64,000 nucleotides of DNA from Gammaproteobacteria bacterium (GCA_965277715.1 OZ255836.1:256001-320000), one strand, 5' to 3'. Shown: positions 272 through 29,436, numbered from the stretch's first letter. The notes: a model not told the origin generated them from the letters alone. Numbers and translations: made by a program.

Positions 272-481
272 GTGGGTGTGACTGGAGACATTGGCTGCAA
301 ACTAATTAGGACAGGCATCGATAGAGATGACAGCTTTATCGTAGAAGAAAGCAGCTCTCCAGTCGGCCATGACTTGTCTGACTCAATTTGTAATGGTCAA
401 GTATTTCTGTAGTGACTCTAAGCCACATTGAGTAATTTCTGCCTTTTCATTGCTGGTGTCAGGCATCGAGAAAAGGGGCCA

Positions 482-1456
482 TATATGGACCCGCAGTTAA
501 ATTCAACAATTTTTTAATCGTTCATTCATTTTTTAGCGTTCAGAGCAGACATAGTAAATAAGGTTAGCAGTCATATATCCGGCTTCTCGATAGAACGGAT
601 TGTATTTGTTTATCCGTCCAGAACCATAATGGGAACCGCGCTCAGACACCTCATCAAGCAATCGGTCTGTGAAGACCATGACCCCTCCAGGTTCTGTCTT
701 AGCCGGTTTAACCTGTTATACCCTTTACTGCTCTTTCGCTACCTCGTGGTAAGAAATCTTCAACGATGTTATTAAACTGTTTTATGCACGTAAGTTGTAT
801 TATTAGCCGCCACCGCCCAGCTAATTCTGGCGAGCTTATTGGCCAATGCCACCGCCGCCACACAATGGCCCCGACGTGCTTTGACACGACAGGCCCAACG
901 ACTTAGCCCATCATCGTGTTTAGGCATTCGACTTAATGCCGCTTGCGCCCCCTGTATCAACAAAGTGCGCACGTGTTCGTCCCCGCGTTTACTGATACCT
1001 TTTAGTTGCGTTTTGCCCCCCGAACTATATTGACGAGGAACGAGACCCAAAAAGGCGGAAAACTCACACCCATTTTTATAAAAACCCGGATCGCCCATTG
1101 CTGTAAACAAGGCAGTGGCGACCAGAGGCCCTACACCCGGCAGTGTTTTTAATTGCTGACAGCGCTCATGCTGGTTGCTCAACTGGGTTAACCGTTTTGT
1201 GTAGTGTGTTACGCGTTTATCAATCGCCACTAGTTCATCATACAAAGAACTGAACACTTCACGTGCTGTGGCTGAACCGTGTTTATTAGCACCACACACT
1301 TGAAAAATAGTTTTGGCTAGATCAATACCCAATCGGGTGATATTCTCGTTCATGGACTCGCTCCTACCTTTATTAGGTGATAATAGATTGGTTGTGTTAC
1401 CGCTCAATCTTGGCACATTGTGATGCCGGTTCAAAGGGAGCGGGTCCATCCCATCA
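482..1456 (-). mobile_element. IS110 family (IS1111 group) element, internally deleted copy
   Basis: Near-identical to 27874-29293. Sub-terminal IRs ATGGACCCGC (485-494) and GCGGGTCCAT (1440-1449). The transposase is deleted in frame (KHG fused to SATARE). Confidence 0.92.
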
Positions 1457-1516
1457 GGCATAGACTGACCCCCGGCGCTCACGTTGTTCGCTTGTGCCCC
1501 CGAGCCAGTGTCCGCT

Positions 1517-1545
1517 GCGCCGCATAATCAGTCGTTATGTTAAAT
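1517..1545 (+). other. dif-like XerC/XerD recombination site
   Basis: GCGCCGCATAA-tcagtcg-TTATGTTAAAT: perfect XerD arm, XerC-like arm, 7-bp central region. Confidence 0.7.
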
Positions 1546-1749
1546 GGCCGGTCGCTATCGCTCCATAAGGTGTGCTGCGCACTGCGCACGGTCTCTTGCG
1601 CCGCTGTCGCGCGCCAGAGCCGTGCTGTTTTTAAAGAGCCCGCCCACCCCGGTCAGCTAAAGGGCGCTCCAGCCCGCACAAAAAGCGTGCGTTCTTCCAT
1701 TTCCCCTTTAGCTGCCCTCCCTGAATCAGGTGGGTGTGGTGGACAAGGG

Positions 1750-1889
1750 CTGACTGCACATGCTGTCAGGTTAGCACCGTGCTCGAACCGTCAAGGCCAA
1801 GCCCTACGGGTTCTTCGCTCCACGGCGTTGCGCTGCGAAGCCTTGACAGTCCTGCGCGCGATGCAAGGGGTTTTGCATGTCCAGTCAGT
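1750..1889 (+). promoter_or_regulatory. Long imperfect hairpin, resembling an ssDNA promoter/origin (Frpo/ssi-like)
   Basis: Nested IRs CTGACTGCACATGC/GCATGTCCAGTCAG and GTCAAGGC(1790-1797)/GCCTTGAC(1840-1847), the latter overlapping TTGACA, upstream of a small gene. Confidence 0.4.
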
Positions 1890-1926
1890 CCTACTGGGCT
1901 GTCAACAGCCACAGGAGCAAATCAAC

Positions 1927-2160
1927 ATGAAACAGCGAATAACCATCGACCTACCCGACGAGTTTATCGCGTTGTGTCAAGCAGACGAAGTCGAGCCGGA
2001 ACGGGTGCTCAGGGGCTTCATTGCTGATCTATCTGGCATTATGAACTGGGCAAATGATCCCAGGGAAGACGGCTACTCAAGCCATGGCAGAGACGAGCGG
2101 ATGAAAGCTCGTGAGTATTATGATCGAGTCGGTTATCCGTACTGGAAGCAGTACAAGTAA
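1927..2160 (+). CDS. Small hypothetical protein (77 aa) of mobile-element type
   Basis: AGGAG RBS, ATG at 1927 (MKQRITIDLPDEF...RVGYPYW), hairpin AAAGGCCGG/CCGGCCTTT at 2166-2190. The 207-aa ORF call is an upstream over-extension. Confidence 0.7.
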   Translation: MKQRITIDLPDEFIALCQADEVEPERVLRGFIADLSGIMNWANDPREDGYSSHGRDERMKAREYYDRVGYPYWKQYK

Positions 2161-2528
2161 TCCATAAAGGCCGGTGCAATCCCGGCCTTTTAGCGCGGCC
2201 TGATGGTTCAGAAAAAAGCGGCTAAAAACAGAAGCCTTCATGATCGTGCCGTCATCGCGTAAACTACCGGCCATGACGTATCCGATTCAATCCCTCCTTC
2301 AACTGAATGTCCCGCAGGTTCTCTGTCTGTGGCGGTTGACCTGGCTGTACCTGATGGCGGCTTCTATCCTGAAACAAAGTACCGCGCTGGTCGTATCGGT
2401 GCGAAAACCGCCTCAAGGGAAAAAATCGCCAGAACAGGATGGTATCAAGGAAAAGAGACGTTTAACGGATTGTTTTATCAAAGGAAAAGTGGGGTCGTTA
2501 CGAGGATGCACGTCAAGCGTACCCATCC

Positions 2529-3010: not shown

Positions 3011-3011
3011 T

Positions 3012-3535
3012 ATGTATGTCATGATATTCAAGGGCCTATTCTTTTCGTTTTTGGTTTCAATTTTGAGTTTAGTAATAGTGACTTACACTCCTATAGAACT
3101 AACCCAGAGAGAGCCGAGTAATATCTATTCACCATATTTGGATGAAATTAATGTAATACAAAAAAAAACGGAACAAGGCTTACATCCGTCATCACCTGAG
3201 TGGAAAAGGCTTGATGAGTTGATAGAAAAAAATAATCAGTGGCATGAACAAGATCACAATGAAAATTTTCAAAATACTACAATTAGCTTACGTGTTTCCT
3301 GGAAAAAGAAAAGCAACTATATGTCTCCTGTTATTATGTTGCTTTGGGTTTAGCATTTTATTATTTTTTTAAATCTCGTTCAGAAATTCAATTGCTTAGC
3401 GTTTTGATATTCCCTGTTATTTTATTAGTTACCCAATTGATGTCTATATTGCAAGTAGTGTTAATTGTGTTTGTTGTTTTATCAATCTTGTTTTGGAATA
3501 GGAAAAGAGCATCGACTGGGACAGGCATAGACTGA
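3012..3535 (+). pseudogene. Putative membrane immunity protein for CT1, frameshifted near 3346-3348
   Basis: ORFs 3012-3353 and 3344-3535 join if one G is added (TGG GGT TTA GCA). AT-rich, several TM segments, directly after the toxin. Confidence 0.65.
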
Positions 3536-3550
3536 AGAGCAAAAGAGAGC

Positions 3551-5243
3551 AAAAGGAGCAAAAGGGGTCAAGGCAGAATGGCACTTCCTTAAGCTGTAAG
3601 TATTTGAAGTAATTACAAAAAAAGCTGGTTCTATGGTAGGTTATTTGTTGCCAACACAAATACCCTTTATCCCACAGGAACCAGCTATCATGCAGAGTAA
3701 TGTAAAAGTCAACATTCTTCAACGTCGCATCAAAAGCCGAGCTCAATCCTCGGATGCATTGAGTTTTTATCACTTGCTGACATCCTCTCAGTTACTTACG
3801 AAACTGGAAGAATTACAACCGGATTTTCGAGCGCGTCGCTATCCTCCTCTAGACACCTTATCGCTGTTTTTATACCAAACAATGAGTGCAGATCAGTCCT
3901 GCCAACAAGCTGTCAACACACTCGCTGTACAGCGATTAAGTGAAGGTTTATCAGTGAGTAATACGTATACAGGGAGTTAGTGTAAAGCGCGACAAAGGCT
4001 GCCAACCCCCCTCGTCTCAGGGCTTGCCCGTTGTACAGGCGAGTGTGTGGCGAATGAAGCGGCCAGTCACTGGCACTGGCAAGGGCGTTCAGTTAAATTG
4101 GTTGACGGCACTACTGTGACGATGCCCGATACGCCTGAAAATCAGGTAGTTTATCCACAACAGTCAGGCCAGCAAGTGGGGATCGGTTTTCCTCTTTGTC
4201 GCTGGGTAGGAATTATTTGTTTAGCCAGTGGTGGTGTTCTCGATGCGGCAATGGGTCCTTTTAAAGGTAAGGGAGCGGATGAGCAAACGTTATTGAGAAA
4301 AATACAAAATGCGCTTAAACCGGGTGATATTGTGGTGGGTGATGCCTATTTTGCGGGTTATTTTTTTCTAGCAAACCTTATAGAGCAAGGAGTAGACGGT
4401 GTATTTGAGCAGCATGGTGCGCGGCGTAAATCCACAGATTTTCGAAAAGGCAAAAAGCTTGGATCGAAGGATCATCTGATTTGTTATACAAAGCCCAAGA
4501 AAAGACCAGAGTGGATGAGCGAAGAAGCCTATGAAGCGGCGGCTGATGAAGTGGTTATACGTGAACTGAAAGTGGGTAAAAAACTGTTGGTGACAACGTT
4601 GTTATCAGTTAAATCGGCGTCTAAAGAGGCTCTTAAACAGCTCTACAAAGAACGCTGGCATGTCGAACTTGATTTACGCCATATAAAAACGACAATGAAG
4701 ATGCACACTTTCCGTTGTAAGACGCCAGAAATGGTTGAGAAGGAAATGTGGGTACACATATTAGCTTACAACCTTATTCGCTTATTAATGGCGCAATCTG
4801 CCTTACTAGTGGACATACTGCCTCGACAGATAAGTTTTAAGCATACGTTACAAATTTGGGTAGCGTATCGTTATCAGAAAGGCGGTAGCCCTCTGGGTAG
4901 TGATAAGGTGTTGGCGCTATGTGCGTTGATTGCAGAAAACTGTGTGGGTAATCGACCGGGGCGTATTGAACCAAGAGTGGTTAAACGAAGACCCAAACCA
5001 TATCCTTTATTGATGCAGCCAAGGGACGTGGCCAGAAGTGTTGTTAAAAAATATGGCCATCCCAAAAAACAGAAATAGGTCATTTACAATGAAAGTACTT
5101 CCATATTTTTCATGTACTTAGAGCTTAAGGAAGTGCCATTCGGGTCAAGGCAGTTATTTCCTATATTTCTTGCTGGAAACCACTGTTTTTATCCGTATTA
5201 GTCGTTGTATGGTGAATAATAAGCCTGACCCCCTTGCTTTCTT
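3551..5243. repeat. REPIN/MITE-like unit (~110 bp, GGGGTCA...TGACCCC arms) split by an IS4 insertion
   Basis: 3557-3575 plus 5153-5240 reconstitute a unit matching 27781-27875 plus 29296-29307. Confidence 0.85.
3576..5141 (+). mobile_element. IS4 family element; transposase 3690-5078 interrupted by TAG at 3978-3980
   Basis: 27-bp TIR GAATGGCACTTCCTTAAGCT(G/C)TAAGTA, 11-bp DR GGGTCAAGGCA, motifs VDGTT and YKERWHVELDLR. Confidence 0.95.
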
Positions 5244-5316
5244 TTAACTGAACCTCGTATCAAGGCCTCTCAGAGACTAAAAGATTCATTGGGTTAAACC
5301 TGAGGTAGCGGTATTG
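5244..5316 (+). mobile_element. Isolated right end of the IS4 element found at 8825-10353
   Basis: Matches the last ~73 bp of that element (...CCTGAGGTAGCGGTATTG). Confidence 0.9.
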
Positions 5317-5327
5317 CCCTCTGACCC

Positions 5328-6887
5328 CAATGGCACTAAGTTAAGCCGCTTTAGCTTGCCAATATTCAGTTTTTAAAACGTTCCTTGGTCGAGTCATTAA
5401 TGCCCGTGGTTTAGGTCGCCTTTTTACCACTCTTGGTTCAAATCTAAAAGGTCGATGAAGCACACGATCATCCGCAATCGCTGCATATAAATAATCAAGA
5501 TATTGCCGTCTTTTTTGTGCTGGACTCTGCCCACTACCAAGTGATGAAGTGCTTTGTCGGAGTGTTTGCAAAACACCTTTAAGACTTAGCCGATCAACCG
5601 GTGTGTCATGTCGGTATGAAGCGACACACATGATGTGCCTGATCGTGTTGTAAACAATCATGTGCATGATGATTTCCTTACGAACCATATCAGGTGTTTT
5701 ACAGCGTAATATATCCATACCCATGGTGGTTTTAATATTGCGAAAATACAGTTCCACATTCCAGCGCTGTGCATAGAGGTCGATAATTTCTATAGCGGGA
5801 TATTGCTGAGCATCAAGTAGTGTCGTGATGATATAAAAATGGTTCGTCCTAAATCCTTTTCGTACAATACTGACGTGTATTTGTCGTAAAGTTAAGGTCT
5901 TTGGAAGGTCGCTATGCTGCTCTTTTGTGTAACGGGTCGCTTTTGTGTGTTTAGGTTTTTGCCATTCAATATGAAGGTCATTATCGGCTATCTTCTTTTT
6001 GGCCTGGGAGGCAGTGCTGGGCGTTCTCCGCGCCAATGTAACGACACTGTCAACCGTTCGTCGAGAGAGGCAGTCAATATCGTAGAAGCTGCAAAAACCT
6101 TTATCACCTAAGAAAATGTCACCTTCATTGAAGGTATCCCATTGTTCTTCTAAAAGTCTTAGCTCATGACTTTTTTTATTTCCTAGTGCATAGCTCAGAA
6201 TTAAACCGCTATAAAGATTAAAACAAGCTAAAAGCCGTGCTTGAGGAAATCCGCATCCCTGTTTTTGTGATTTCGGTTGTGGGTAAGTTTGTTGATTCGC
6301 GGGCGTATCGGGCATGGATAGGCCTGTCCCATCGGCAACGATAACCGGTCGACCTTGGAGCGCTTTGGGTTGAGGTGGCGATAATCGACACGTCCCTGAA
6401 AATACGTTTTTAAGATCGTCCATGGGTAGTTTTTTACGTGCTTGGCAATAGGCGGAGGTGGATGATGAAGGTATGGGAATGCCTTGGTTGTGGGCGACAT
6501 TTTGCAGTTGTCTAACGACTTCTTTACAGCCACCATCGGCGTTCATTATTTGTGAAAAAAACAACCAGAAAGTATTTTCTTTACTGAAAATACGTCGACG
6601 ACTATTCACACCAAAATCATTCGGTTTAAGAATATTCGTGGGTATAATATCGCCAAGAAAAACAGGTAGTTCACTCAGTGATTTGTGACGTATTTTTGCT
6701 ATCTTATCGTGCAAGATTTGAATGGCTGAACGGGGTGTTTTGCGGAGTGTTTGGATGTTGAATCCGGGTAGAAATAAGGTTGTATTTTTCATACAAAATT
6801 ATAACATTTCAGCCTTTTTTATTGGGTTTATTACAGTTATTTTTTCGTTTATTTTACCCGCTAAAACCGCTTAACTTAGTGCCATTG
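5328..6887 (-). mobile_element. IS4 family element with intact 483-aa transposase (5341-6792)
   Basis: TIR CAATGGCACTAAGTTAAGC, 11-bp DR CCCTCTGACCC, motifs DGTG, GDKGF, YAQRWNVELYFR. Confidence 0.95.
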
Positions 6888-6912
6888 CCCTCTGACCCCC
6901 TTGCTTTCTTGC

Positions 6913-7965
6913 TTTTTTAAAAAAGCATTCGGGGGACTTGCGGGTCTTGTATTAGGGTTACCGGCGGCTTTGCAGCGACTTGAGAAGAAAGTTAAAAGAG
7001 CCGCTATTCGGGCTGTAGGTCCAAAAATTGCCAATCTCGCGGCGACAATTGGCTCAGCATTTTGTGGCCCTTTTGCGGCGCTGTATTATGCGGCGGCGCA
7101 ACACGACATAGCCAGAGCGTATGGGGCTTCGCCCTCGGAAGCCGCTAGAGGTGCCGCTGTAGTGGGAATAACGTATTATCTTGGGCAAGGCAACGGAGGA
7201 GATAGTGGGTGGTCGAACTTTGCCTATAAGGTTGCTGCCAGGGCAGGTCAAAATACGTTGAACGGAGGAGATGATGGTGGTTCGGGTGGTCGATCAACAA
7301 TTGCACAAGGAGGGCGGTTTGGTGCAGGATTTGTTACCTCATCCTTTGCAGACAGTGCGAAGCCGGTAAGTCTGAGTGTGGGTGGGAAATCGGCCACGAA
7401 TAGAATTCATCGGACGGTTGCGGCGGCGGTGGTTGGGGGGACGGCATCTAAGCTTGGTGGGGGTAAGTTTGCAAACGGGGCGCAGACCGCTGCGTTTGCG
7501 CATTTGTTGAATGCAGAGTTGAGTGCTCGGAAGGGAAGAGAAGCGGGTAAAGTATATGTAACAGGTCATAATGTCGGCGGCGTTGGCCCCGTGCATACGG
7601 CGATTGAATATACTGACGCTAATGGTGAAACTGTGACGTTTAGTGCTGGCCCTGACGGCGGATTATTGGTTAGTGACCTAAATCGATCATCAGATGCCCC
7701 CGCTAATAATTTTACTGTTGATTTGGTAACACTCCCTAAAGGTGCGACAGCTCAAAGTTATGTGAATAGCTTGAGGCAGGCTGATAGTGCTTATTGTGAT
7801 TGCGTTGATTACGACCTGTTTCCAGGGGTTGTAGACAGCTTCAATTCAAATAGTTATGTACGCGGTTTATTGAATGCTACTGGAGGTAGAACGTCTGTAA
7901 ATCTCGGCGACTATTATGGTGGTAACGATCCACTGCCTCGTCATCATTTCCAGTCTAGCCCATAG
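6913..7965 (+). pseudogene. Orphan Rhs C-terminal cassette 2: Gly/Ala-rich pre-toxin region plus papain-like toxin domain
   Basis: Starts at FFKK, the position just after DPSGY in the 10355 Rhs fragment. Contains GGGKFANGAQTAAFAHLLNAE, then H...HTAI...YDLFP...NSNSY. Confidence 0.75.
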
Positions 7966-7974
7966 GTGAGTGGT

Positions 7975-8514
7975 ATGAAAAGAACCGTTATCATTTGTAC
8001 AATCCTTCTATTTAGTGTTGGTTGCATGTCTAAATCGTTTGACTACAAGTACATCTCGCTAGAACAACTTGAAGGAATTGAGATTGTATCTCATGGAAAA
8101 TCTGAGTTATCACGCCTTAAATCAGATGATGATATGCCGACGCGTTATAAGCTATCTAGGAAAAATTATATTCTTATTTTTGAATTGGATAAAAAAAATC
8201 ATTGGCCATCAATTTTAGTTAGCTCGAAGTCTTTGAGTGGCGTTGGCCTTGTTATTGAAGCTATTACGGTAGGGGATTGCGGTGGTTTTGATGATTGGGG
8301 TGTGCAATACAAGGTAGATAACCTACAGGCTTTAAGATATGTGTGGTCACCTGCCTTTAGGCGAAATTGTAAAATGAGTGGCAATGAGGATTATCCTAGT
8401 CAGCAAGTGATTAGTTTTGTAGTGAAGGATCAAGAAGGTAAAGTGTTTGGCGAAGAAAGGTTGCCATTTGTTTTGATAAAAAATGGTACCTACTATGAAA
8501 AAGACAGCCTTTAG
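7975..8514 (+). CDS. Putative lipoprotein immunity protein for CT2
   Basis: MKRTVIICTILLFSVGC signal peptide with lipobox, abuts the toxin stop codon, AT-rich. Confidence 0.75.
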   Translation: MKRTVIICTILLFSVGCMSKSFDYKYISLEQLEGIEIVSHGKSELSRLKSDDDMPTRYKLSRKNYILIFELDKKNHWPSILVSSKSLSGVGLVIEAITVGDCGGFDDWGVQYKVDNLQALRYVWSPAFRRNCKMSGNEDYPSQQVISFVVKDQEGKVFGEERLPFVLIKNGTYYEKDSL

Positions 8515-8520
8515 AAAAGA

Positions 8521-8820
8521 GAAACTAATTAGGAAAACTAATTAGGACAGGCATTGAGAGCAGGCATCGGCAGGCATCAGGACAGGCAGAGTAAAGACAT
8601 CGACTAGTTTTAGTGCCTGTTCGGAGGTTTTTTTGTTGGTTTGATGAGAGTGAATTCATCGAGCGTGCATCCATCGTTTAGCGTCATGCTTCAATAGCAT
8701 GCCGTCGATTAACGCCATAATGCCTGTCCTGTCCATTTCGGCGTCCATTGGCTCAGCGTTTAAAACCTTTCTTTTAGCGGCGGTTACTGGCGGATGTATT
8801 GAGAGAAGGGAAGGGGTCAT
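8521..8820. repeat. Cluster of (GGA)CAGGCA motifs with an inverted copy and a GGGGTCA arm
   Basis: Duplicated AACTAATTAGGA, CAGGCA motifs at ~8545, 8561, 8571 and 8580, inverted AATGCCTGTCCT at 8719-8730, GGGGTCA at 8813. Confidence 0.7.
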
Positions 8821-8824
8821 ATAT

Positions 8825-10353
8825 CAATACCGCTACCTCAGTCTGGTGAAGAACTAAAATAACGTTAAAAGTCATATAGATGGGTAACGTTAGGTTTCCT
8901 TTTGAAGTATCCTTGTAAGCGACAAAACACACAAGTACTTCGCCAAAAAACCTAACGCTGACCTATTCTATGAAATTCGCTATCCGACAGCAAATTAAAA
9001 CGATCAAATGTGTTTTTTTTCAGTTAAACACAGGAGACTTTAATAATTTACTCTGTTCCAAGCGTCTAAACGACCTAAGCGAACTATCGGGCAGCTATCG
9101 AGACCGGGTATTCACCCCACTTGTTACACTGCGTTTATTTCTCTGGCAGGTGTTAAGTGATAATGGCAGTTGTAAAGAAACAGTCGCCCGTCTGCTAGTT
9201 GATCGTTTACAGGAAAACCTGCTTCCAAGTTCTTTTAATAGCGGTCCTTACTGTAAAGCCCGTCAACGTTTATCTCTGTCGTGGGTACTTCAGGAGGTAC
9301 GTTCAATCGGTTCAACGTTACATGCCAGAGCAGGTAAAATTTGGACATGGAAAGGGTATAATGTGGTGCTTGTGGATGGAACCACTGTTCTCATGCCTGA
9401 TACCCAGAAAAATCAACATAAATACCCCCAGCAACAGACTCAAAAACCGGGTTTAGGTTTTCCTATTGCTCGAATAGTCGGACTCATTTCTTTAAGTTCT
9501 GGCGCTATTATTGATTATGCAATGGGAGAGTATCAAGGAAAGGGAACAGGGGAAATGTCATTATTCAGTACCCTGATGACGTCATTAACCGCCAATGATC
9601 TGTTACTGGCAGACCGCTATTACTGTACTTATGCTGTCTTAGCGGCTCTACAATCGAAAGGGGTTGCATTCGTCTCAATGAATCACGCACAAAAGAAAGC
9701 GGATTACAAAACAGGGTTAACGCTTGGTGCAAAAGATCATCTTATCGAGTGGGAAAAACCTAAAAGAAAACCGGTTTGGATGTCGCAATCAGACTTTGAT
9801 CTATTGCCGAAAACCCTGACAGTTCGAGAATTTTCAGTGGATGGGACAGTCTATGTTAGCACTTTGTTGGAGGTTGATACTTACCCTAAGAAAGAGCTTT
9901 CAACACTGTATAAGGAACGTTGGAAAGTTGAATTGGATTTTCGTACAATTAAAACAGATTTGAAAATGGATATGTTGCGATGCCATTCACCCGAGATGGT
10001 TGAAAAAGAAATAGCAACAACCTTTATGGCTTATAACCTGATTCGGGGTAGCATGGCAGAGTCAGCAAAAACAGAGGGTGAAATAGCACGTCAAATAAGT
10101 TTTAAGGCAACGGTACAGCTACTGGGTATTGCTCATATTAAATTCATCCATTCAACATCCAGTATGATACAAAAAGCGTACACTTCCTTATTAAGGATAA
10201 TCGCTTCAACGTTAATTGGCAGGAGAAAACGATCACCCCAACCAAGGGCAATTAAACGACGACCAAAAGCCTACCCACTGTTAACTGAACCTCGTATCAA
10301 GGCCTCTCAGAGACTAAAAGATTCATTGGGTTAAACCTGAGGTAGCGGTATTG
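8825..10353 (+). mobile_element. IS4 family element with intact 454-aa transposase (8970-10334)
   Basis: TIR CAATACCGCTACCTCAG, motifs VDGTT, ADRYY, YKERWKVELDFR. No DR visible. Confidence 0.93.
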
Positions 10354-10354
10354 G

Positions 10355-12944
10355 GGCCTGATCCATATGAATGGGCGGGTATACGATGCAAGCCTGGCGC
10401 GGTTTGTTAGCGCTGATCCGCATATACAGGCGGCGGGCATGAGCCAGAGCTATAACCGTTATAGCTATGTGCTGAATAACCCCATGAAGTATACGGACCC
10501 TAGCGGGTACTTTTTTAAGAAGCTTTTTAAGTCGATTAAAAAAGCGGTTAAAAAAGTGGTAAAAGCTATTAAGCCATTTATAGTGGTGATCATTGCGGCT
10601 GTGGTGACTTTTTATTGCCCACCCTGCTTAGCGTTAGTGGGGGGAAACGCAATTGCACTGGGCGCACTGGCCGGGGCAGCAGCAGGGGCAGCCAGTGCGG
10701 CTATTAATGGTGGTAATATACTTAAAGGCGCCATTACTGGTGGTATATCGGGTGCTATATTTGCGGGGACAGGTGTGTCAGGTTGGGAAGATAAAGCGAA
10801 GGTATTGGCTCATGGTATAGCGGGAGGATTTATGTCTGTGGTGCAAGGAGGGAAATTTGGGCAGGGATTTTTGAGTGCTGGGTTTGCTAAATTTGCAACG
10901 ACCAGCCTGACTAATGGCGGTGTTTTTAATATGGCTGATCGAAGTACTGGGAGTATTGTGGGCAGAACGGCGGTTGCGACAGTGGTTGGAGGTACGGCGT
11001 CTGAGCTTGGTGGGGGTAAGTTTGCAAACGGGGCCAGGACCGCCGCGTTTGCGCATTTGTTTAATGCGGAGTCGGGCCTTCTGAAGAGGAGCCGGACAGA
11101 TATTGGTGCTCCAACTGGGAGACAGAGATGGACAATGCTTGGGTATGTCGTTGATGATAAGTATGTTCCTGTCCCCCTGTGTCAGGCTAGTTGTCCCCCT
11201 CCCTAAATTGGGATTCAATAAGTTATTACAGGAGGCAAAGAGAGAGTGATATGGGTTGTCCAATAGAAAGAAAGGCCGCTGTTTTAAAGAAGATGCTGCC
11301 GCCGAACAATCAGACAATTTCCCGGTTAGCCAAAGAAGAAGGCATTGCACAAGGTACGCTTTCATAGTTGGCGAGCCCAAGCAAGAGCGAAAGGCGAACT
11401 CATGCCAGATGGCGATTTGACACCAGCAGGTTGGGGTTCTTCGGATAAGTTTGCAGCGGTTCTGGAAAGTGCGTCATTAAGCGAAACAGACCTTTCAGCT
11501 TATTGCCGTCATCGTGGTTTGTACCCTGATCAGATTAAGGCATGGCGAATGGCTTGTGAACAAGCCAATGACTGGGATCGCGCCCAAACGAAACGTTTAC
11601 AAACCAGTCGTAGAGAAGCGGATAAACGTATTAAACGTCTCGAACAAGACCTGCACCGAAAGGAGAAAGCGTTAGCCGAAACAGCCGCTTTGCTGGTGCT
11701 TAGAAAAAAGGCCCAAGCGATCTGGGGGGAGGGAGAGGACGAATGACCTGCCATTCAGATCGCCAAAATAGTATCCGTTTAATCAAAGAGGCCGTTGTCG
11801 CTGGCGCTACATTAAGCAAAGCGTGCAAAGTGCTTGAGTGACACCCTAAGACGTACCGACGCTGGGCAAACGCGGGTACTGTCCGTGCTGATGGCAGACC
11901 CAGCGCTCATCGACAGGCGCCTGGTAATAAGTTCACAGCAGAAGAGCGGGCATTGATTGTCACCACCTGTAATGAAGCGAACTACCAAGCGCTACCCCCC
12001 TCGCAAATTGTGCCCAAATTGGCGGATGAAGGTGTGTATGTTGGGTCAGAGTCAAGCTTCTATCGGGTGTTAAAGTCGGAAAACCAACTGCAGCGGCAAG
12101 GTAAGGCGGCGGCGCCTAAAAAACGGCACAAACCTAACAGCTACCTGGCATCAAGGCCAAACGAGGTGTGGTCTTGGGATATTACCTTTTTGAAATCGAA
12201 CATAACCGGGTGGTTTTACCGGCTTTACATGATGATGGATATTTACAGTCGTAAAATTGTTGCCTGGGAAGTGCATGACAGTGAATCGGCTGATCTGGCA
12301 GCGGCGCTGATCCAGCGTGCCTGTTTAGCGGAGGGGTGCAGCCAGAGTCAATTGGTATTACACGCGGATAATGGTGGCCCAATGAAAGGTGCTACCATGT
12401 TAGCAAAACTGCAATGGTTGGGTGTGATACCTTCGTTTAGCAGGCCATCGGTAAGCGATGATAATCCTTATTCAGAAAGTCTGTTTAGAACCTTAAAATA
12501 CACGCCTGCCTATCCGTCAAAGCCATTTGATAGTTTAGCCTCTGCCCGAAACTGGGTGCATGGATTTGTGCAATGGTACAACGACTCTCATTGCCATAGC
12601 GGCATTGGGTTTGTGACACCAACCTCACGTCATAAAGGCGAAGATCACGCGATACTGGCAGCCAGAAAAGCAGTTTATGAACAAGCAAAGGCCAAACACC
12701 CTGAACGCTGGAACCAGGATATTAAACACCTCGAACCGGTATCGGGGGTGTGGTTAAACCCGGAAAAGGAAGGCTTGGCCATGAGACAAAAGCATAATGG
12801 AATTGAAAAGCAAGTAGCATAGTAAAACGGACAACTACCTTGACAAACACCGCTGTGGTAGATGCTGCTATTAAAGAAGCGAAGCTTGCTCTGAGCCCAG
12901 TGCCTCGAAGAATAACGGGGGGAGCTTTTGGTTCTTTACTTGGA
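10355..12944 (+). pseudogene. Rhs core C-terminus plus toxin cassette 3, interrupted by IS3 (11173-12852) and cut by the IS at 12945
   Basis: GLIHMNGRVYD...NRYSYVLNNPMKYTDPSG is the Rhs-associated core. The frame resumes after the IS3 (DR CTGT): KYVPV|VDAAIKEAKLALSPVPRR. Confidence 0.88.
11173..12852 (+). mobile_element. IS3-family element, full length but defective (orfA 11251-11746 frameshifted; orfB has an in-frame TGA at 11839)
   Basis: Imperfect TIR with a TGTCA..TAGTTGTCC core, 4-bp DR CTGT, rve motifs WSWDIT, HADNG, DNPYSESLFRTLKY. Confidence 0.9.
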
Positions 12945-17945: not shown

Positions 17946-18043
17946 GGGCGCTTACTTTTCTATTGCTTGTATACAATCTGGATATTAGAATATACCTATT
18001 TTCACTTAGCAAACCCACTAGCACCCATCTGAAAGATTCTTTA

Positions 18044-19860: not shown

Positions 19861-19929
19861 AGACAAAAGCACAATGGAATTGAAAAGCAAGTAGCATAGT
19901 AAAACAGACAACTACCTTGACAAACACCG
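19861..19929 (+). mobile_element. Isolated right end of the IS3-family element
   Basis: Matches 12784-12852 (...ACAACTACCTTGACAAACACCG). Confidence 0.88.
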
Positions 19930-23341: not shown

Positions 23342-23344
23342 CTT

Positions 23345-23490
23345 TTACTCTTCGCTAGTCAACACCAAACACCCGTCCATCACTCTGACCTTCACTGGCG
23401 AATCAATCTCAAATCCCGCTTTGATTAACCAATGGCCTTTGAGGTGAATCTCGCCAATGGGTGTGCGCTGTCGGCAGTTCTGGCTGAAAT
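23345..23490 (-). pseudogene. symE: SymE-family toxin, 5'-truncated
   Basis: Manual translation IHLKGHWLIKAGFEIDSPVKVRVMDGCLVLTSEE*. The 5' end is replaced by the GGGGTCAGGC repeat at 23501. Confidence 0.8.
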
Positions 23491-23521
23491 AAAAGGAAAA
23501 GGGGTCAGGCTAGTTATTTAC

Positions 23522-24839
23522 GGTTCTTCCCCGGTTTGTGTGAGGTTATAGTATTTCATCCTCCTTTGCTATTGAGAGACTCCGGTGCTATCGAGCCTTG
23601 AAGAACACTACAGCCAGCTCCTATGCCTGACAGATGACTGGTCAGTGACATCAGTTGATTTAGACCCTTCAGGGTTAAAAGTATCCATTTCGTTGGCGTT
23701 TAGCGGCAACCACGGCCCTTGCTCGCACTGTGGCGAAGTGAGTCCGTTCTATGATCACCGTTCACAAGAGCGATCCTGGAGACACCTGGATATTATGCAG
23801 TTTGAAACGCGCCTACACAGTCGCATTCCCCGAGTAAATTGTCTGGAGCATGGTGTTAAAAGTATGATGTTACCCTGGGCAAGCAAGCGCAGTCGTTTTA
23901 CGTTGTTGTTTGAATTATTTTCCATCAGGGTGTTGCAAGCCTCACGTAGCGTCGAAGAGGCGCGTAAGTTACTGGGACTTAGCTGGAACGCAGTGGAAGC
24001 CATCAAAGCCCGCGCTGTCGAACGGGGACTTTCGCGTCGGGAATTGGTGACAATTGAGTACCTGGGTATTGATGAGAAGTCCCACCGTAAAGGGCATGAC
24101 TATGTGACGCTCATCAATGATATCGATGGAGGGCGAGTATTGGATGGAGTGAAAGATCGCACCCAGGCAGCTTGTGAGGAGGCGTTGGAGGTTGCGCTGA
24201 CGGATAACCAGCGAGAACAGGTGAAAGCTGTCGCTATTGATAGGTGGCCTGCGTTCATTAATGCCGTTGAGGTAAAACTGTCAGACAGTGCGATTGTTCA
24301 CGACCGTTTTCCTATTAGCCAACACCTGAATAAGGCGGTGGATCAGGTCCGTCGTGACGAACATAGAGACCTTTTGTCACAGGGTGATACTCGATTGAAA
24401 AAGAGTCGTTATCACTGGTTAAAAAATGAAGAAAATTTGTCTAACAAAGCAGCCGAGCACTTTGAGTCACTCAAGCATGATCAGTTATTGACAGCCCGAG
24501 CCTGGGCGATAAAAGAACTGTTTCGTGATTTTTGGACGTATAAGACAGCGGGTTGGGCAAAGCGTTTCTTTAGCGCATGGTATGCGTGGGCAATTCGGTG
24601 CCGATTGGACAGCATAAAGAAAGTGGCCAAGATGATAAAAACGCACATGCCGAACATATTGACATGGTTTAAGCACACAATAAGTAATGCCGTATCAGAG
24701 GGTTTGAATTCAAAAATTCAGACAGTCAAATCGAATGCAAGAGGGTTTCGTTCGTTTGAAAGTTACCGGCGGAGTATTTTGTTTTACTGCGGAAAGCTGG
24801 ATAGGGAACCAGTGGCTTCACAATAATCGGGGAAGAACC
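23522..24839 (+). mobile_element. ISL3 family element, 413-aa transposase 23585-24826
   Basis: TIR GGTTCTTCCCC/GGGGAAGAACC, zinc finger, LGIDEK, HDRF, NAVSEGLNSKIQ. Confidence 0.94.
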
Positions 24840-25174: not shown

Positions 25175-25182
25175 GTTCAAAG

Positions 25183-26319
25183 TTATGCTTTAGAATGCTT
25201 GTAGGCCGAAATACTAGTTATATTTTCTGGCAAATCTAACTCGGATAAGAGTGGAAGCAATAAGCTTTCTGTTTGTGTGAGGCTAGTTAAGAATTCGGCC
25301 TTCATTCCTAGTTCGTTTAATAGTCCACCAAAATTTCTCCCATAGCTCTTAAGCAGAAGGGCTAAACTCGATGGTAATAATTCGGGAAAATCTAAGGATA
25401 CTCTGTCGTCATAATATTCTTCTTTTGTTTGCCCTGTTTTGCTGAAATGAATGTTTGCTGTTCTGTATTGTGATGGCGTGATCATTCCATACTGGTTTAG
25501 CCTGTAAATAATAGCTCTAGCGCTTATCCCCCACTTAATCTTTATTGAGTATATGCTGTTCCAGTCAATTCGAGTTTTACTCTTGCTTGTGTATTCTCTA
25601 ATCAGTGCTGCGCGGGGCAGAAGAAAGTGGCTGGCGAAGTGGTCTGCCTGCGACTCGGTATCTCTATCTCCGGTTTCGATACCATTGTGGCCAATGATAT
25701 GTAGCATCTCGTGACCTATATCCATTCTTATACGAGGAGCGTTTTTTGTTGTATTAAGAATAATTATTGGACGCCCTCTGTTTAAAGACAGAGCGTCAAT
25801 TTTTTCAGATATTTCACCGAATGTTGAAACAATCACGCCTGCATTTTCTGCAACACGAATCATATTTTTAATTGGCCCGTCACCAAGCTTCCAATACTTC
25901 CTGCATTCGATACTGGCATTTTCTGCATCGGCTATGGAGGTTATCTCTAACTGCGGAAAGTTTACTGCTGGAAGATCAAGGTATTCCTCTAGAGTGGCAA
26001 CAAGCTTGTTGAGAAGTGTTGCACGAGCAGCACTCTCTCTTCGTGATGAAACCAAGGTTGTCTTTAATTTCCTGAAATGGCACTCCTCTTCTTTAACCTG
26101 ATTACCTAGTTGGTAGCCAAAAAAACTTGGTTCAACTTTTAGTTCGTAAGCCAGTGCATCCACCAACTCTTTGGTTGGTGTTTTCTTATCGGTGGTTTCA
26201 AGCTGATGAATGTATTGACGAGTGTTGCCAACTCGTTGTCCCAACTCATTTAAAGAAATGCCCGACATAAGCCGGGCAATCCTCAGGTTGTCTCCATTAA
26301 ATGCGATTTTGTCACTCAT
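25183..26319 (-). CDS. XRE-family HTH fused to ImmA/IrrE (COG2856) Zn metallopeptidase
   Basis: N-terminal FNGDNLRIARLMSGISLNELG HTH, HEMLH (HExxH), E.QAD.FAS.FLLP. Confidence 0.9.
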   Translation of the reverse strand: MSDKIAFNGDNLRIARLMSGISLNELGQRVGNTRQYIHQLETTDKKTPTKELVDALAYELKVEPSFFGYQLGNQVKEEECHFRKLKTTLVSSRRESAARATLLNKLVATLEEYLDLPAVNFPQLEITSIADAENASIECRKYWKLGDGPIKNMIRVAENAGVIVSTFGEISEKIDALSLNRGRPIIILNTTKNAPRIRMDIGHEMLHIIGHNGIETGDRDTESQADHFASHFLLPRAALIREYTSKSKTRIDWNSIYSIKIKWGISARAIIYRLNQYGMITPSQYRTANIHFSKTGQTKEEYYDDRVSLDFPELLPSSLALLLKSYGRNFGGLLNELGMKAEFLTSLTQTESLLLPLLSELDLPENITSISAYKHSKA

Positions 26320-26924
26320 TCGTCGTGCTCTTTGGAATTAGAAACTTTGTCTGTTGCAGCTTTTGGCAAAGATGCTGACGCAGCAGGAAGATCTACTGGC
26401 TCGCTTTCCACACTGTTGATTGCAACTATATTAGATGCAATATCGAAGATTGGCACTGTGCGAGAAGCTATAACTTCACCAGACTCTGTCATGCCGAAAA
26501 ATTCTATATTGGTTGTTGTGCCTTCTAGGTCGGTCTCTACTGCGTACACCCAAACAAGCTTTTCTGGGATCGGTGAATCAAATAGTAAGCTGTTTTGTCG
26601 CAGTTCTGGGTGGGACTGCGCACGATTATGAATATTTGCCTTCGGTTTGTTTGCCATGCCTTTATAAAAACTAAACTCTACGCTGCCAATTTTGGCAATA
26701 AAGCGTAGTGAGGGGTCAACAATATTTAACCAAGGAAAACTTTTAGATTGAAACACTATTTCATTGCTCACCCATGCATGTGCTCGACAGCCTATACTCC
26801 AGCCATTGTCCCGATCTTCTACGGCATCAAGGTTTTCAGCTCTGACTCTGGCAATTAGTTGGCCGATATAATCGATGCGCTCATCGGTTAGGCAGGAATG
26901 TATTTCAGAAGGCTGTTTGATCAT
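26316..26924 (-). CDS. Hypothetical protein translationally coupled to the XRE-ImmA/IrrE gene
   Basis: ATGA overlap with the downstream gene. Likely start MIKQPSEIH (26924); the ORF track starts it at 26963. Confidence 0.75.
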   Translation of the reverse strand: MIKQPSEIHSCLTDERIDYIGQLIARVRAENLDAVEDRDNGWSIGCRAHAWVSNEIVFQSKSFPWLNIVDPSLRFIAKIGSVEFSFYKGMANKPKANIHNRAQSHPELRQNSLLFDSPIPEKLVWVYAVETDLEGTTTNIEFFGMTESGEVIASRTVPIFDIASNIVAINSVESEPVDLPAASASLPKAATDKVSNSKEHDE

Positions 26925-27110
26925 GTGGCAGTACCCATTTATGAGTGTAGAAGACAATGCCATGATATGGGTAAAAACGGGTTTTTGTCAACCGCGATAT
27001 GGTTTGTAAATCAACTTTGCTATTGTCAACTTGAAGTGAGGTTACTTTCGCTGATGTTTATTAATAAGTAATCACATGTAAGCAGTTTCTGACGCTCCTT
27101 GATTCAAAAT

Positions 27111-27145
27111 AAAAAAGCCCCGAAAACCTTACGGCTCGGGGCTTT
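27111..27145 (-). terminator. Terminator downstream of the tRNA
   Basis: AAAAAAGCCCCGA...TCGGGGCTTT, with the U-tract on the minus strand. Confidence 0.75.
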
Positions 27146-27152
27146 GATATGC

Positions 27153-27226
27153 TGGGCCTTCGCAGACTTGAACTGCGGACCTGCCGATTATGAGTCGGAT
27201 GCTCTAACCAACTGAGCTAAAGGCCC
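27153..27226 (-). tRNA. tRNA-Ile2 (CAU anticodon), complete; CCA not encoded (A-GCA)
   Basis: GGGCCTTTAGCTCAGTTGGTTAGAGCATCCGACTCATAATCGGCAGGTCCGCAGTTCAAGTCTGCGAAGGCCCA folds as a cloverleaf. C4/C5 in the acceptor stem favour Ile2 over Met. Confidence 0.9.
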
Positions 27227-27344
27227 TAAACTGTTTTTGCCGCTTACTAACTGCTTACTTTCACTTTTTGCTTTAGTTGTTTACTTGGCGTAAGCGGCTG
27301 TAACTAAAGCCTTTTTTGTTCTTTCTCTCCATCTAGCCCGCTCT

Positions 27345-27384
27345 ATTATGAGTCCCCTGCTCTAACCAACTGAGCTACAGGCCC
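27345..27384 (-). pseudogene. 5' half of a second, probably native, tRNA-Ile2 cut just after the anticodon loop
   Basis: GGGCCTGTAGCTCAGTTGGTTAGAGCAGGGGACTCATAAT followed by unrelated sequence. It lies 45 bp downstream of rpoD, the usual ileX position. Confidence 0.85.
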
Positions 27385-27429
27385 ACATGTTTAAACAGTG
27401 GGGTAGGGCGATTGCCCTGAGTGGTGATT

Positions 27430-27723
27430 TTAATCGCCGTCGAGGAAGCTGCGCAACTGTTCCGAGCGGGTCGGGTGGCGTAACTTACGTAACGCTTTGG
27501 CTTCTATCTGCCGTATCCGCTCGCGCGTTACGTCAAATTGTTTGCCGACTTCTTCCAGTGTGTGGTCGGTGTTCATGTCGATACCGAAACGCATCCGCAA
27601 TACTTTTGCCTCGCGTGGCGTCAGGCAGGATAACACATCGTGGGTGGTTTCACCCAGCCCTGAATTGGTCGCCGATTCGACTGGGGATACGGCGCCCTGG
27701 TCTTCGATAAAGTCACCGAGGTG
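27430..27723 (-). pseudogene. rpoD: 3' fragment of RNA polymerase sigma-70 (end of region 3 plus region 4)
   Basis: HLGDFIED...[51 protein letters not shown]. The upstream part is replaced by a repeat cluster. Confidence 0.93.
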
Positions 27724-27875
27724 AAGCAAAAGGGGTCATGAAGCAAAAGGGGTCAAGACAGTTATTTCCTATATTTCTTGAAGCAAAAGGGGTCAAGACA
27801 GTTATTTCCTATATTTCTTGCTGGAAACCACTGTTTTTATCCGTATTAGTCGTTGTATGGTGAATAATAAGCCTG
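27722..27875. repeat. Tandem GGGGTCA repeat cluster / REPIN-like unit
   Basis: TGAAGCAAAAGGGGTCA occurs three times, with a 40-bp tandem duplication (27740-27779/27780-27819). The unit resumes at 29296 after the IS110. Confidence 0.9.
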
Positions 27876-29293
27876 ATGGGATGGACCCGCTCCCTTTGAA
27901 TCGGCATCACAATGTGCCAAGATTGAGCGGTAACACAACCAATCTATTATCACCTAATAAAGGTAGGAGCGAGTCCATGAACGAGAATATCACCCGATTG
28001 GGTATTGATCTAGCCAAAACTATTTTTCAAGTGTGTGGTGCTAATAAACACGGTAAAGTGGTGTTTAATAAAAAACTTAAACGCGATCAGCTACCGTCTT
28101 ATATCGCCACTATACCGGCCTGTGAGGTGGTGATGGAAGCGTGTGCGACGTCCAGTTATTGGTCGCAGGTTTTCACACGCTACGGCCATACCGTCAAACT
28201 CATTAACCCAGCCTATGTACGCCCTTACGTTAAAACAAACAAGAACGATGCAGCGGATGCAGAGGCGCTGTGTGAAGCAGCCTCACGTCCGAATATGCGA
28301 TTTGTTTAGCCCAAAACACCCGACCAACAAGACAGCCAATTACTCCACCGGGTGCGCAGTCGGCTAGTGTCAAAACGGACGAGTTTAAGTAATCAGATAA
28401 GAGGGTTACTGGGTGAGTATGGGCTGATTATTCCGGTAGGTATTCGCCACGTCCGCCAGCACTTGCCTGCGCTTTTAGAGGATGCTGAAAATGCCTTGTC
28501 AGCCACAGCACGTGAAGTGTTCAGTGCTTTGTATGATGAACGAGTGGAGATTGATAAACGCGTAACACACTACACAAAACGGTTAACCCAGTTGAGTAAC
28601 CAGCATGAGCGCTGTCAGCAATTAAAAACACTGCCGGGTGTAGGGCCTCTGGTCGCCACTGCCTTGTTTACAGCAATGGGCGATCCGGGTTTTTATAAAA
28701 ACGGGCGTGAGTTTTCCGCCTTTTTGGGTCTCGTTCCTCGTCAATATAGTTCGGGGGGCAAAACACAACTCAAAGGTATCAGTAAACGCGGGGACGAACA
28801 CGTGCGCACTTTGTTGATACAGGGGGCGCAAGCGGCATTAAGTCGAATGCCTAAACACGATGATGGGCTAAGTCGTTGGGCCTGTCGTGTCAAAGCACGT
28901 CGGGGCCATTGTGTGGCGGCGGTGGCATTGGCCAATAAGCTCGCCAGAATTAGCTGGGCGGTAGCGGCTAATAATACAACTTACGTGCATAAAACAGTTT
29001 AATAACATCGTTGAAGATTTCTTACCACGAGGTAGCGAAAGAGCAGTAAAGGGTATAACAGGTTAAACCGGCTCAGACAGAACCTGGAGGGGGTCATGGT
29101 CTTCACAGACCGATTGCTTGATGAGGTGTCTGAGCACGGTTCCCATTATGGCTCTGGACGGATAAACAAATACAATCCGTTCTATTGAGAAGCCGGATAT
29201 ATGACTGCTAACCTTATTTACTGTGGCTGCTCTGAACGCTAAAAAATGAATGAACGATTAAAAAATTGTTGAATTTAACTGCGGGTCCATATA
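27874..29293 (+). mobile_element. IS110 family (IS1111 group) element; transposase 27977-29002 with in-frame TAG at 28307
   Basis: GIDLAK, MEAC, KNDAADA, SSGG motifs. Sub-terminal IRs 27881-27890 and 29281-29290 with 7-bp/3-bp overhangs, and a TG core on both sides. Confidence 0.95.
29003..29280 (+). ncRNA. Putative bridge/seek RNA of the IS1111-type element (boundaries approximate)
   Basis: Contains target-matching segments AGGGGGTCA (29088-29096) and TGCTTGA (29115-29121), and donor-matching segments TCCCATTA (29141-29148) and ATATATGA (29197-29204). A second copy lies at ~495-771 on the minus strand. Confidence 0.8.
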
Positions 29294-29436
29294 TGACCCC
29301 CTTGCTTACCTTGGGTGGCGCACTATAAGCATACGTTACGCCATGCATAGCAAAGCGTTACGCGGTTTTCCCGTTATGGATTATGTTTTCAGGGTGATAA
29401 AAACCGGAGCGGTGAGTAAGCCAGGAAATTTTTATA

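Follow-up and report, generated by a model that had tools for sequence, protein, structure and literature searches.

Why should a single heptamer, GGGGTCA or its complement TGACCCC, lie at so many junctions between unrelated DNA within one bacterial island? The question is raised by a stretch of 64,000 nucleotides from a Gammaproteobacteria bacterium (GCA_965277715.1 OZ255836.1:256001-320000; the whole stretch is hereafter the window, and positions are counted from its first letter), the first 30 kb of which consist of dense insertion sequence (IS) debris around three orphan Rhs C-terminal modules. A previous reading made from the sequence alone (the sequence-only reading) had proposed that the motif is the recombination site of a RAYT-driven system that shuffles Rhs toxin and immunity cassettes. 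Our analyses support a different answer, namely that the extended motif, referred to here as the arm, is probably the end of a TIRtron, that its enrichment at junctions results mainly from secondary IS insertions into the arm, and that the one-sided junctions are secondary as well.

The heptamer occurs 16 times in the 64 kb, against 6.03 +/- 2.36 expected from 100 dinucleotide shuffles, none of which reached 16. The extended arm AAG[CG]AA-N(1-2)-GGGGTCA was found seven times (average over 1000 block shuffles, 0.007), on the minus strand at 5226, 6893 and 29294 and on the plus strand at 23493, 27724, 27741 and 27781, all within 5-30 kb. Only the subtype GGGGTCA(G/A) with outer AAGCAA is enriched (arm consensus AAGCAA(A/G)(A/G)GGGGTCA(G/A)G); the wider pattern GGGGWSAS is not enriched window-wide, with 19 matches vs 15.4 +/- 3.6 expected. 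Among the 14 heptamers of the first 30 kb (1-30 kb), eight (1466, 3564, 5226, 5322, 6893, 8813, 23501 and 29294) lie at most 20 bp from an IS terminus or a break, a number reached by none of 20000 permutations (null mean 0.49), and the sequence-only reading was right in placing the motif at junctions between unrelated DNA. Three more (27732, 27749 and 27789) are tandem left-arm copies at a break in rpoD, two (679 and 29090) lie inside ISs, and one (26712) is an unrelated match within an open reading frame (ORF). The two heptamers beyond 30 kb (43073 and 51813) are bare and inside ORFs or coding sequence, the second half of the window being ordinary chromosome (flagellar genes, an AddAB-like pair, transporters and a few IS fragments) without the arm.

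What the arm belongs to is suggested by its sequence and by the gene family that accompanies it. TIRtrons are characterized, in the relevant passages of Di Nocera et al. 2013 (PMC3733652) and Quentin et al. 2018 (PMC6006769), by ends sharing GGGGWSAS (GGGG[AT][CG]A[CG]) and by arms that in some cases are dispersed as singles, dimers and clusters. Their TIRYT proteins constitute, in the same passages, a subclass with Bac_DnaA_C/HTH tails whose genes are flanked by terminal inverted repeats, not REPs; Quentin et al. (PMC6006769) place them in subclass 2.1, with a C-terminal helix-turn-helix (HTH) of Bac_DnaA_C, HTH_23 or HTH_28 type. The window's GGGGTCAG fits GGGGWSAS at eight of eight positions, and the inventory of two arm pairs, one palindrome and at least four solo arms is that of a dispersed family. 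On the same 4.29-Mb contig, the 322-aa protein P0165 combines Y1_Tnp (2e-13) and Bac_DnaA_C (3.6e-07) with HYH and RYIHRNP motifs; its 90% cluster comprises, besides one fragment, five distinct 322-aa variants from this contig and a sixth variant from a small contig, and a second cluster consists of two shorter pieces. An HUH gene of Y1_Tnp plus DnaA-HTH architecture, as supposed in the sequence-only reading, is accordingly intact on the same chromosome. The window itself carries a decayed C-terminal remnant of such a gene (41700..42139, minus strand; frameshift, stop codon lost), 75% identical to P0165 and with a Bac_DnaA_C match of E=0.079.

Homologues elsewhere carry arms of the same kind. 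A tblastn search with P0165 against plasmids found 12 records, of which nine loci were examined: GGG(G)WCAG occurs 48-152 nt upstream of the start in seven of the nine, and six of these also have its inverted counterpart at the stop codon or immediately behind it. The arm tip in Sporomusa (L003), GGGGTCAGGCC, equals the window arm GGGGTCAGGC, and the window's right arms begin likewise; the Pseudomonas arm, AAGAA(T/A)AAAGGGGACAG, resembles the outer AAGCAAAA and the GGACAGG variant of the window. The TIRYT protein family is very large: no fewer than 7143 of the 8000 scored candidates reach E<=1e-20, and many are annotated as RayT. Type II toxin-antitoxin genes (Doc-type, MazEF and HipA; L006 172-782, L009 226-754 and L008 1-636) are the immediate neighbours of three of the nine plasmid genes, which echoes the toxin-rich setting of the window.

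The anatomy of the arm pairs points in the same direction. Arm pair 1 comprises a left arm (GAGCAAAAGGGGTCAAGGCA; 3556..3575, plus strand) and a remainder with the intact right arm ..GCCTGACCCCCTTGCTTTCTT (5142..5243, plus strand; 87 nt are 99% identical to 27790-27876). Arm pair 2 runs from its left arm to a crossover within its right arm (27781..27876, plus strand) and is completed by the outer part of that arm (CCCCCTTGCTTACCT; 29297..29311, plus strand). Each pair is interrupted by an IS, and when the ISs are removed (for pair 1, the IS4-subgroup element 1 described below together with one duplication copy) the unit restored from pair 1 and the unit at 27781 are identical at 107 of 111 positions. 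The 111-bp unit consists of a left arm, a leader of ~66 nt, ATG GTG, and then TAA TAA directly before GCCTGACCCCC; its stop codon lies immediately 5' of GCCTGACCCC, as it does in the homologues L002-L004 and L006. Judged from this layout, the gene-less pair may be a TIRtron minus its gene, in which the left end, the leader and a possible start codon would be joined to the stop codon and the right end.

Further arms are scattered over the first 30 kb. A short head-to-head palindrome of two arms is split into a left half at 455..478 (..GAGAAAAGGGG) and a right half at 1454..1472 (TCAGGCATAGACTGACCCC) by a copy of an IS1111-type element. Solo arms stand at 6888..6915 (minus strand), where an 8-nt duplication at the outer edge is joined to the FFKK codons of the second Rhs module, and at 23493..23521 (plus strand; AAGGAAAAGGGGTCAGGCTAGTTATTTAC), where the inner side is cut by an ISL3-family element, while tandem left-arm copies (17 nt x2, then 40 nt x2; TRF, 100% matches) fill 27722..27820 on the plus strand. 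The solo arm at 6892 was also considered as mere coding sequence for Rhs TDP, an idea we rejected, because this arm is not in the reading frame and all of its 19 nt match the arm at 5225-5243. The window also contains a diverged second type of arm, GGACAGG. Variant arms form a 26-nt block ending in AGGACAGGCAT (299..324, plus strand; 92% identical to 8535-8560), downstream of a small ORF at 2-271, and precede a threefold stutter of AGAGCAAAAG at 3518..3565 (plus strand; variant arm GGGACAGGCATAGACTGA). At 8522..8730, a 13-nt x2 stutter is followed by a second inverted pair of the variant arm (AGGACAGGCATT at 8544-8555 and AATGCCTGTCCT at 8719-8730), perfect over 12 nt and with a spacing of 163 nt. 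The variant GGACAGGCAT is indeed found at 309, 3518 and 8545, as the sequence-only reading had it; the small ORFs that it follows matched no family, so that their description there as immunity genes is conjectural.

Most of the supposed breakpoints are ordinary IS insertions into the arm, recognizable by 11-bp duplications or by a precise IS1111-type crossover. The former are due to three IS4-subgroup elements of 1529-1566 bp, with terminal inverted repeats of 17-33 nt beginning (G/C)AAT(G/A) and with transposases whose mutual identity is only 34-45%. Element 1 (3576..5141, plus strand; 1566 bp, 33-nt inverted repeats, transposase in two ORFs, transpos_IS4_1 9e-52) is bordered by the 11-bp duplication GGGTCAAGGCA at 3565-3575 and 5142-5152. 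Element 2 (5328..6887, minus strand; 1560 bp, 28-nt inverted repeats, 483-aa transposase with DDE_Tnp_1 and Nterm_IS4) is bordered by the 11 bp CCCTCTGACCC (other strand GGGTCAGAGGG) at 5317-5327 and 6888-6898. Element 3 (8825..10353, plus strand; 1529 bp, 17-nt perfect inverted repeats, 454-aa transposase, transpos_IS4_1 1.1e-63) lacks a matching duplication, its left flank being GGGTCATATAT and its right flank GGGCCTGATCC, part of the Rhs core coding sequence. The isolated IS end that the sequence-only reading had placed after 5225-5243 is a right-end fragment of a type-3 element (5244..5316, plus strand), 91% identical to the right end of element 3 (10278-10369), and the 11 bp next to its end at 5316 are the duplication of element 2. 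In all four IS4 events the staggered cut starts at the second G of GGGGTCA, and the duplicated 11 bp begin GGGTCA. The DDE_Tnp_1 domain, -AATR ends, size and 11-bp duplication of these elements agree with the IS4 subgroup as given in Table 1 of PMC2266710 (ends -AATR, 1400-1650 bp, 10-13 bp duplication), and the same paper (De Palmenaer et al. 2008) mentions a 'spectacular' site specificity in members of the subgroup.

The second kind of insertion involves two copies of an IS1111-type element. Copy 2 (27877..29296, plus strand; 1420 bp; DEDD_Tnp_IS110, Transposase_20 and NCBIfam transpos_IS110) interrupts arm pair 2. Its transposase gene (27977-29002) has 341 codons with one in-frame stop and matches PF01548 and PF02371; it is surrounded by 100 nt of non-coding sequence on the 5' side and 294 nt on the 3' side, and a 10-nt subterminal inverted repeat is present (ATGGACCCGC/GCGGGTCCAT). 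Copy 1 (479..1453, minus strand; Transposase_20 5.8e-23) carries a 444-bp internal deletion and is 98-99% identical to copy 2. The boundaries of both copies are the same, ..GCCTGA|TGGGATGG.. and ..CCATATA|TG(A/G)CCCC.., which places the insertion point at CTGA^CCCC. The unoccupied site, GCCTGACCCCCTTGC, is intact at 5212-5243, and a third junction of this kind is seen at 8801..8824 (plus strand), where an arm (GGGAAGGGGTCA) continues into TATAT, the first 5 nt of the IS1111-type right end, forming the vestige GGGGTCA+TATAT at 8813-8824 (5-nt vestige at 8820). Two of two copies and a 5-nt vestige in the same site, together with the longer 3' non-coding region, correspond to the layout of the IS1111 family. 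The 211-aa downstream ORF of copy 2 falls into a protein cluster for which this contig supplies 13 member sequences, and many IS1111-type copies may accordingly share the broken gene.

A bridge RNA of IS110 was reportedly described by Durrant et al. in 2024. For the IS1111 family, Siddiquee et al. 2024 (PMC11187229) describe a seekRNA, derived from the downstream non-coding region, that picks the site, its top-strand match lying 5' of its bottom-strand match and the two overlapping in the target. The 3' non-coding region of copy 2, which folds far better than its shuffles (z -4.74), contains a candidate top-strand guide, AGGGGGTCA (29088..29096, plus strand), complementary to the flank TGACCCCCT, and this flank starts exactly at the crossover; a 9-nt guide match to the 24-bp site was reached by 42 of 2000 shuffles. 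Copy 1 has the guide-like AGGGGTCA at 679-686. Five G in the guide of copy 2 face five C in its flank, and four G in copy 1 face four C, while the remaining flank difference of copy 1, TGG for TGA, would make a G-U pair with the guide. The guide and the IS1111-type insertion would together account for the two motif copies inside ISs and for two of the junctions listed in the sequence-only reading.

Under the reading that we favour, a TIRtron family would thus have left its debris in the window, in the form of a gene remnant, two gene-less pairs, a palindrome, solo arms and the diverged GGACAGG type. Because every arm offers the same sequence, other elements may then have come to use it for landing: three IS4-subgroup species would cut it so that the duplicated 11 bp begin GGGTCA, and the DEDD recombinase of the IS1111-type element would insert at CTGA^CCCC, directed by a putative seeker/bridge-type RNA from its own 3' non-coding region (AGGGGGUCA). 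Halves of the arm stand on either side of each IS because the insertions are within the arm. Recombination or adjacent deletion between IS and arm copies could subsequently have produced the one-sided junctions and the unmatched IS flanks, to which one-ended TIRYT events may also have contributed. The relevant parts of Tobes and Pareja 2006 (PMC1525189) attribute mismatched IS flanks to such recombination or adjacent deletion between copies, and describe REPs as targets of IS110-, IS3- and IS4-type elements.

The one-sided junctions deserve separate attention, since the IS4 and IS1111-type cuts lie inside the arm and do not explain breaks at its outer edge. Arm outer edges adjoin the 3' fragment of rpoD, a SymE fragment, the first codons of the second Rhs module and the interior of an IS4 copy, and in no case does the other half lie beyond the arm. 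These breaks had been correctly reported: the region 4 fragment of rpoD (27430..27729, minus strand; Sigma70_r4 1.3e-20) ends at the arm at 27722-27729; the SymE toxin fragment (23348..23509, minus strand; SymE_toxin 4.6e-16), which has no start codon, runs into the arm at 23493-23510, its first codons being arm sequence; and the arm adjoins the second Rhs module at FFKK (6892-6915). On the inner side of the arm at symE lies the ISL3-family element (23522..24839, plus strand; DDE_Tnp_ISL3 5.6e-72, inverted repeats), the flanks of which are unmatched. The second Rhs module and its following 182-aa ORF, a candidate immunity gene (6916..8514, plus strand), align to the third module from FFKK onwards and match no family. 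Module 3 together with the Rhs core end (10354..11172, plus strand) has lost its left side to IS4 element 3, and an IS3-family end truncates it on the right; it alone keeps the core end (10355-10510; TIGR03696 8.2e-12), ..YTDPSGY being followed by FFKK. Modules 1 and 2 have a central block in common with module 3, and the downstream ORFs match no family. The outer-edge breaks need either recombination among the repeats or events of the arm's own transposase, and either may be their source.

Two observations were made beside these breaks. The FFKK start of the second Rhs module is encoded by a perfect 16-bp palindrome, GCTTTTTTAAAAAAGC (6911-6926), that overlaps the 8-nt arm stutter, and given this overlap, microhomology may have made the junction. 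Near the rpoD fragment, tRNA-Met(CAT) (27153-27226) is followed at a distance of 158 bp by a 40-nt copy of its 3' half (27345-27384, 90% identical), which suggests that an island once integrated at this tRNA and left a scar.

The outer edges of the arms are also marked by short tandem duplications. TRF located such stutters beside arms at 3536-3565 (9-10 nt x3), 6900-6915 (8 nt x2) and 8522-8547 (13 nt x2), and at the arm on the rpoD side at 27722-27755 (17 nt x2) and 27739-27820 (40 nt x2), thereby recovering every duplication named in the sequence-only reading and adding the one at 8522-8547. These five stutters, with periods of 8-40 nt, are the top-scoring TRF arrays apart from one in which GGGTGAA is repeated perfectly 5.3 times where fliJ ends (38775-38811). 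They recur in four of the seven arm-bearing relatives, which belong to other classes: a Legionella homologue has 14 nt x2 ending at GGGTC|A; a Pseudomonas one (L004 725-852) a 77-nt repeat as well as a partial copy of 15 nt with its end at GGGGACA|; an Iodobacter one 14 nt x2 starting after CTG|ACCCC; and a Pseudoalteromonas one (L007 440-510 and 1607-1770) arm arrays of 22- and 30-nt period. Repeated-arm arrays at one end thus occur in plasmid TIRtrons of Pseudoalteromonas and Pseudomonas. In three relatives, as in the 17-nt stutter of the window, the inner boundary lies at most two bases from GGGGW-C-A, a position that would be the main support both for a TIRYT nick or joining point and for the 'repeated strand transfer at one fixed end' suggested by the sequence-only reading.

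Carried further, these observations lead to a more ambitious reading, which we regard as rather unlikely: TIRYT would be an active HUH transposase nicking the arm at GGGGW^CA, the stutters would be footprints of repeated or abortive strand transfer, one-ended chemistry would have fused arms to rpoD, symE and the second Rhs module, and the RNA-guided IS1111-type element and three IS4 species would have specialized on the HUH end. If it were true, mobile elements would be nested here in three layers and would make toxin/antitoxin islands into hot spots of rearrangement.

The shuffling system of the sequence-only reading, in which a RAYT-type HUH nuclease uses the repeat end for one-ended capture, deletion and fusion of Rhs toxin/immunity cassettes, draws on the same features: truncated rpoD, symE, Rhs and IS sequences at outer arm edges with their missing halves absent, stutters that recur in relatives, flanks of neither arm pair that match as in a simple insertion, and an active-looking multi-copy HUH gene family. 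We nevertheless consider it improbable, since IS insertions and breaks explain eight of the 14 motif copies and the IS1111-type guide two more, and since no more than three Rhs modules are in view, two of whose cuts are IS ends (IS4 element 3 and the IS3-family element). Arms also stand at fragments of genes unrelated to Rhs, symE and rpoD, and we found no evidence in the window of shuffling dedicated to Rhs cassettes. Neither is the element a REP or REPIN. The REPIN-like unit of ~110 bp that had been described is real in that two copies exist, but it forms no REPIN-like hairpin: as a 116-nt unit it has a folding energy of -9 kcal/mol (z -1.25), 27 of 200 shuffles do no worse, and only the arm tips pair. 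A GTAG-type REP hairpin was not found in the unit. RAYT genes are typically single-copy and flanked by REP hairpins (PMC5581495), whereas the gene family here is multi-copy (five intact variants and fragments), and P0165 reaches 62.8 bits with the NCBIfam model REP_Tyr_transpos, below its cut-off of 80. On fold, copy number and family model alike, a RAYT/REPIN identity fails.

Could the arm instead be a host repeat, or an IS-derived inverted repeat, that has nothing to do with the Y1 gene and is enriched because site-specific ISs pile up on it? We give this little credence, although some points that speak for it also weigh against the TIRtron reading. The link between gene and arm comes from the literature and from homologues 29-41% identical, and that the intact TIRYT genes of this genome carry these very arms (AAGCAARRGGGGTCAG) is extrapolated by analogy with those relatives. 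Two of the nine plasmid homologues have no such arm and one has the upstream copy only. The TIRYT remnant, which the sequence-only reading rightly took for the C-terminal part of a Y1_Tnp+Bac_DnaA_C protein, does not end in the motif as claimed: its last codon is followed only by a degenerate CCTGGCCCGCCCC, and alignment of its end with the 111-bp unit gave a score of 16 that 221 of 500 shuffles reached. The inner part of the arm moreover has the 12-mer GTCAGGCTAGTT in common with IS3-family element ends (11173 and 15589). The exact fit to GGGGWSAS, the presence of the same tip on both sides of six of nine homologues from five bacterial classes, and the position of the arm-pair stop directly 5' of GCCTGACCCC, as in L002-L004 and L006, decide for us in favour of a TIRtron end. 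Early ideas that the arms were Tn3-type or IS3-type ends were given up, the former for want of any evidence for Tn3. That the junctions are assembly chimeras from collapsed or mis-joined repeats is very improbable: a region with many near-identical IS copies within 30 kb is hard to assemble, but two of the insertions are bordered by 11-bp duplications without a mismatch, the IS1111-type copies can be told apart at several positions and by their flanks, and the source is one 4.29-Mb contig.

Other results weigh against parts of the reading that we prefer. The stutters are left unexplained by it. At P about 0.02 the match of the guide is modest; the joint change of the G-run and the C-run is a single event. 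A candidate bottom-strand match, GUCUGA (about 29128-29134), lies ~30 nt 3' of the top-strand guide and is paired in the minimum-energy fold, so that we would call it a bottom-strand guide only tentatively. No bridge or seek RNA family was matched by Rfam in 1-30 kb at E<=0.1, where the matches were the tRNA and a weak, overlapping Plastid-ycf2 below its gathering score. As for the GGGTCA site, two Piscirickettsia plasmid loci with IS4 relatives (43% identical) duplicate AT-rich sites, which indicates that the preference is not lineage-wide; the same check took in two Pseudomonas/Aeromonas loci, the ends of which could not be resolved.

The surroundings are those of a genome crowded with mobile elements. 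Pfam and NCBIfam matches in the first 30 kb comprise four IS4-family transposases, two IS110/IS1111-type copies, and IS3-family, IS66 and ISL3 transposases; those to other genes are a gene whose 698-aa product combines an adenylate/guanylate cyclase domain with TPR repeats, lying among ISs (17714-19810), and an HTH_3 plus Peptidase_M78 (IrrE-like) gene (25183-26963), whose start is overlapped by a 215-aa ORF without a family. IS3-family ends (..TGTGTCAGGCTAGTTGTCC.. / ..TTTGTCAAGGTAGTTGTCC..) occur at 11173-11200, 12825-12852, 15562-15589, 16449-16476 and 19902-19929; they resemble the inner part of both arm types and share GTCAGGCTAGTT with the arm at 23501, a likeness that may reflect common origin or chance. 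The TIRYT remnant is abutted by an IS3-family C-terminal fragment (..GNCWDNASMERCF..; 42090-42230), and its neighbourhood also contains an IS5-like fragment and two copies of IS1595 type with 98% identity over 536 bp (42243-43262 and 47423-48825). Two PIN-domain genes and a MazE-type antitoxin gene (39906-41086) adjoin a DUF3135 gene and the remnant. The window's contig carries many variants of each transposase, and no close relatives were found in the protein collection compared. Megablast searches of 3500-7000 and of the IS1111-type region against plasmids gave no match, no plasmid relative found for the IS1111-type transposase exceeds 49% identity, and a 20-mer from the core of the arm-pair unit hit, in a genome-contig collection that does not include the window's genome, one unrelated contig (L001) by chance, without an arm.

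TIRtrons were defined computationally in 2013 and have been little studied, though their protein family is very large, and the window offers a case of an apparently recently active family, with several intact copies and 111-bp gene-less derivatives, in which the conserved position of the stutter boundary provides a testable guess at the TIRYT cleavage point. It also offers a natural example of a candidate IS1111-type guide aimed at the end of another transposon, with guide and flank differing together between two copies. For annotation, the lesson is that the 'breakpoint motifs' of IS-rich islands can be shared insertion targets.

IS4321 targets Tn21-type ends. Its target logo is mentioned in section 13 of PMC11187229, the paper whose IS1111 seekRNA elements our copies resemble in their DEDD transposase of ~341 aa, long 3' non-coding region, subterminal repeats, lack of a duplication, single fixed target and segment complementary to the top strand at the crossover; they differ in that their target is the end of an HUH transposon and that the RNA and the second guide are predictions. 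The three IS4-subgroup elements share -AATR ends, size, duplication length and, with some members, marked site specificity with the subgroup as outlined in PMC2266710, and differ in having GGGTCA+5 in the TIRtron arm as their site, which a 43%-identical relative does not use. With REPIN/RAYT systems the family has in common an HUH Y1 protein related to IS200 transposases and dispersed short non-autonomous inverted doublets, the differences being arms that do not fold on themselves, a multi-copy gene and a score below the cut-off of the NCBIfam RAYT model. The likeness to TIRtrons, as set out in the TIRtron passages of PMC3733652 and PMC6006769, extends to the Y1 HUH transposase with its Bac_DnaA_C-type tail, to the dispersed arm families and, judging by the plasmid homologues, probably to GGGGWSAS ends that lie at the stop codon and some tens of nt before the gene. 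This genome differs in its multi-copy gene (five intact variants), gene-less arm pairs, outer-edge stutters and arms serving as IS landing sites; those passages make no mention of the last three, nor do they contain a demonstration of TIRtron transposition. The enrichment at junctions is mostly a known phenomenon, site-specific ISs landing on a repeat, of which the REP-targeting ISs in the relevant parts of PMC1525189 are the closest model: there, too, the same repeat is broken at the same base each time and mismatched flanks arise by recombination between copies, the difference being that here four IS species of two families have come to lie on one arm within 30 kb.

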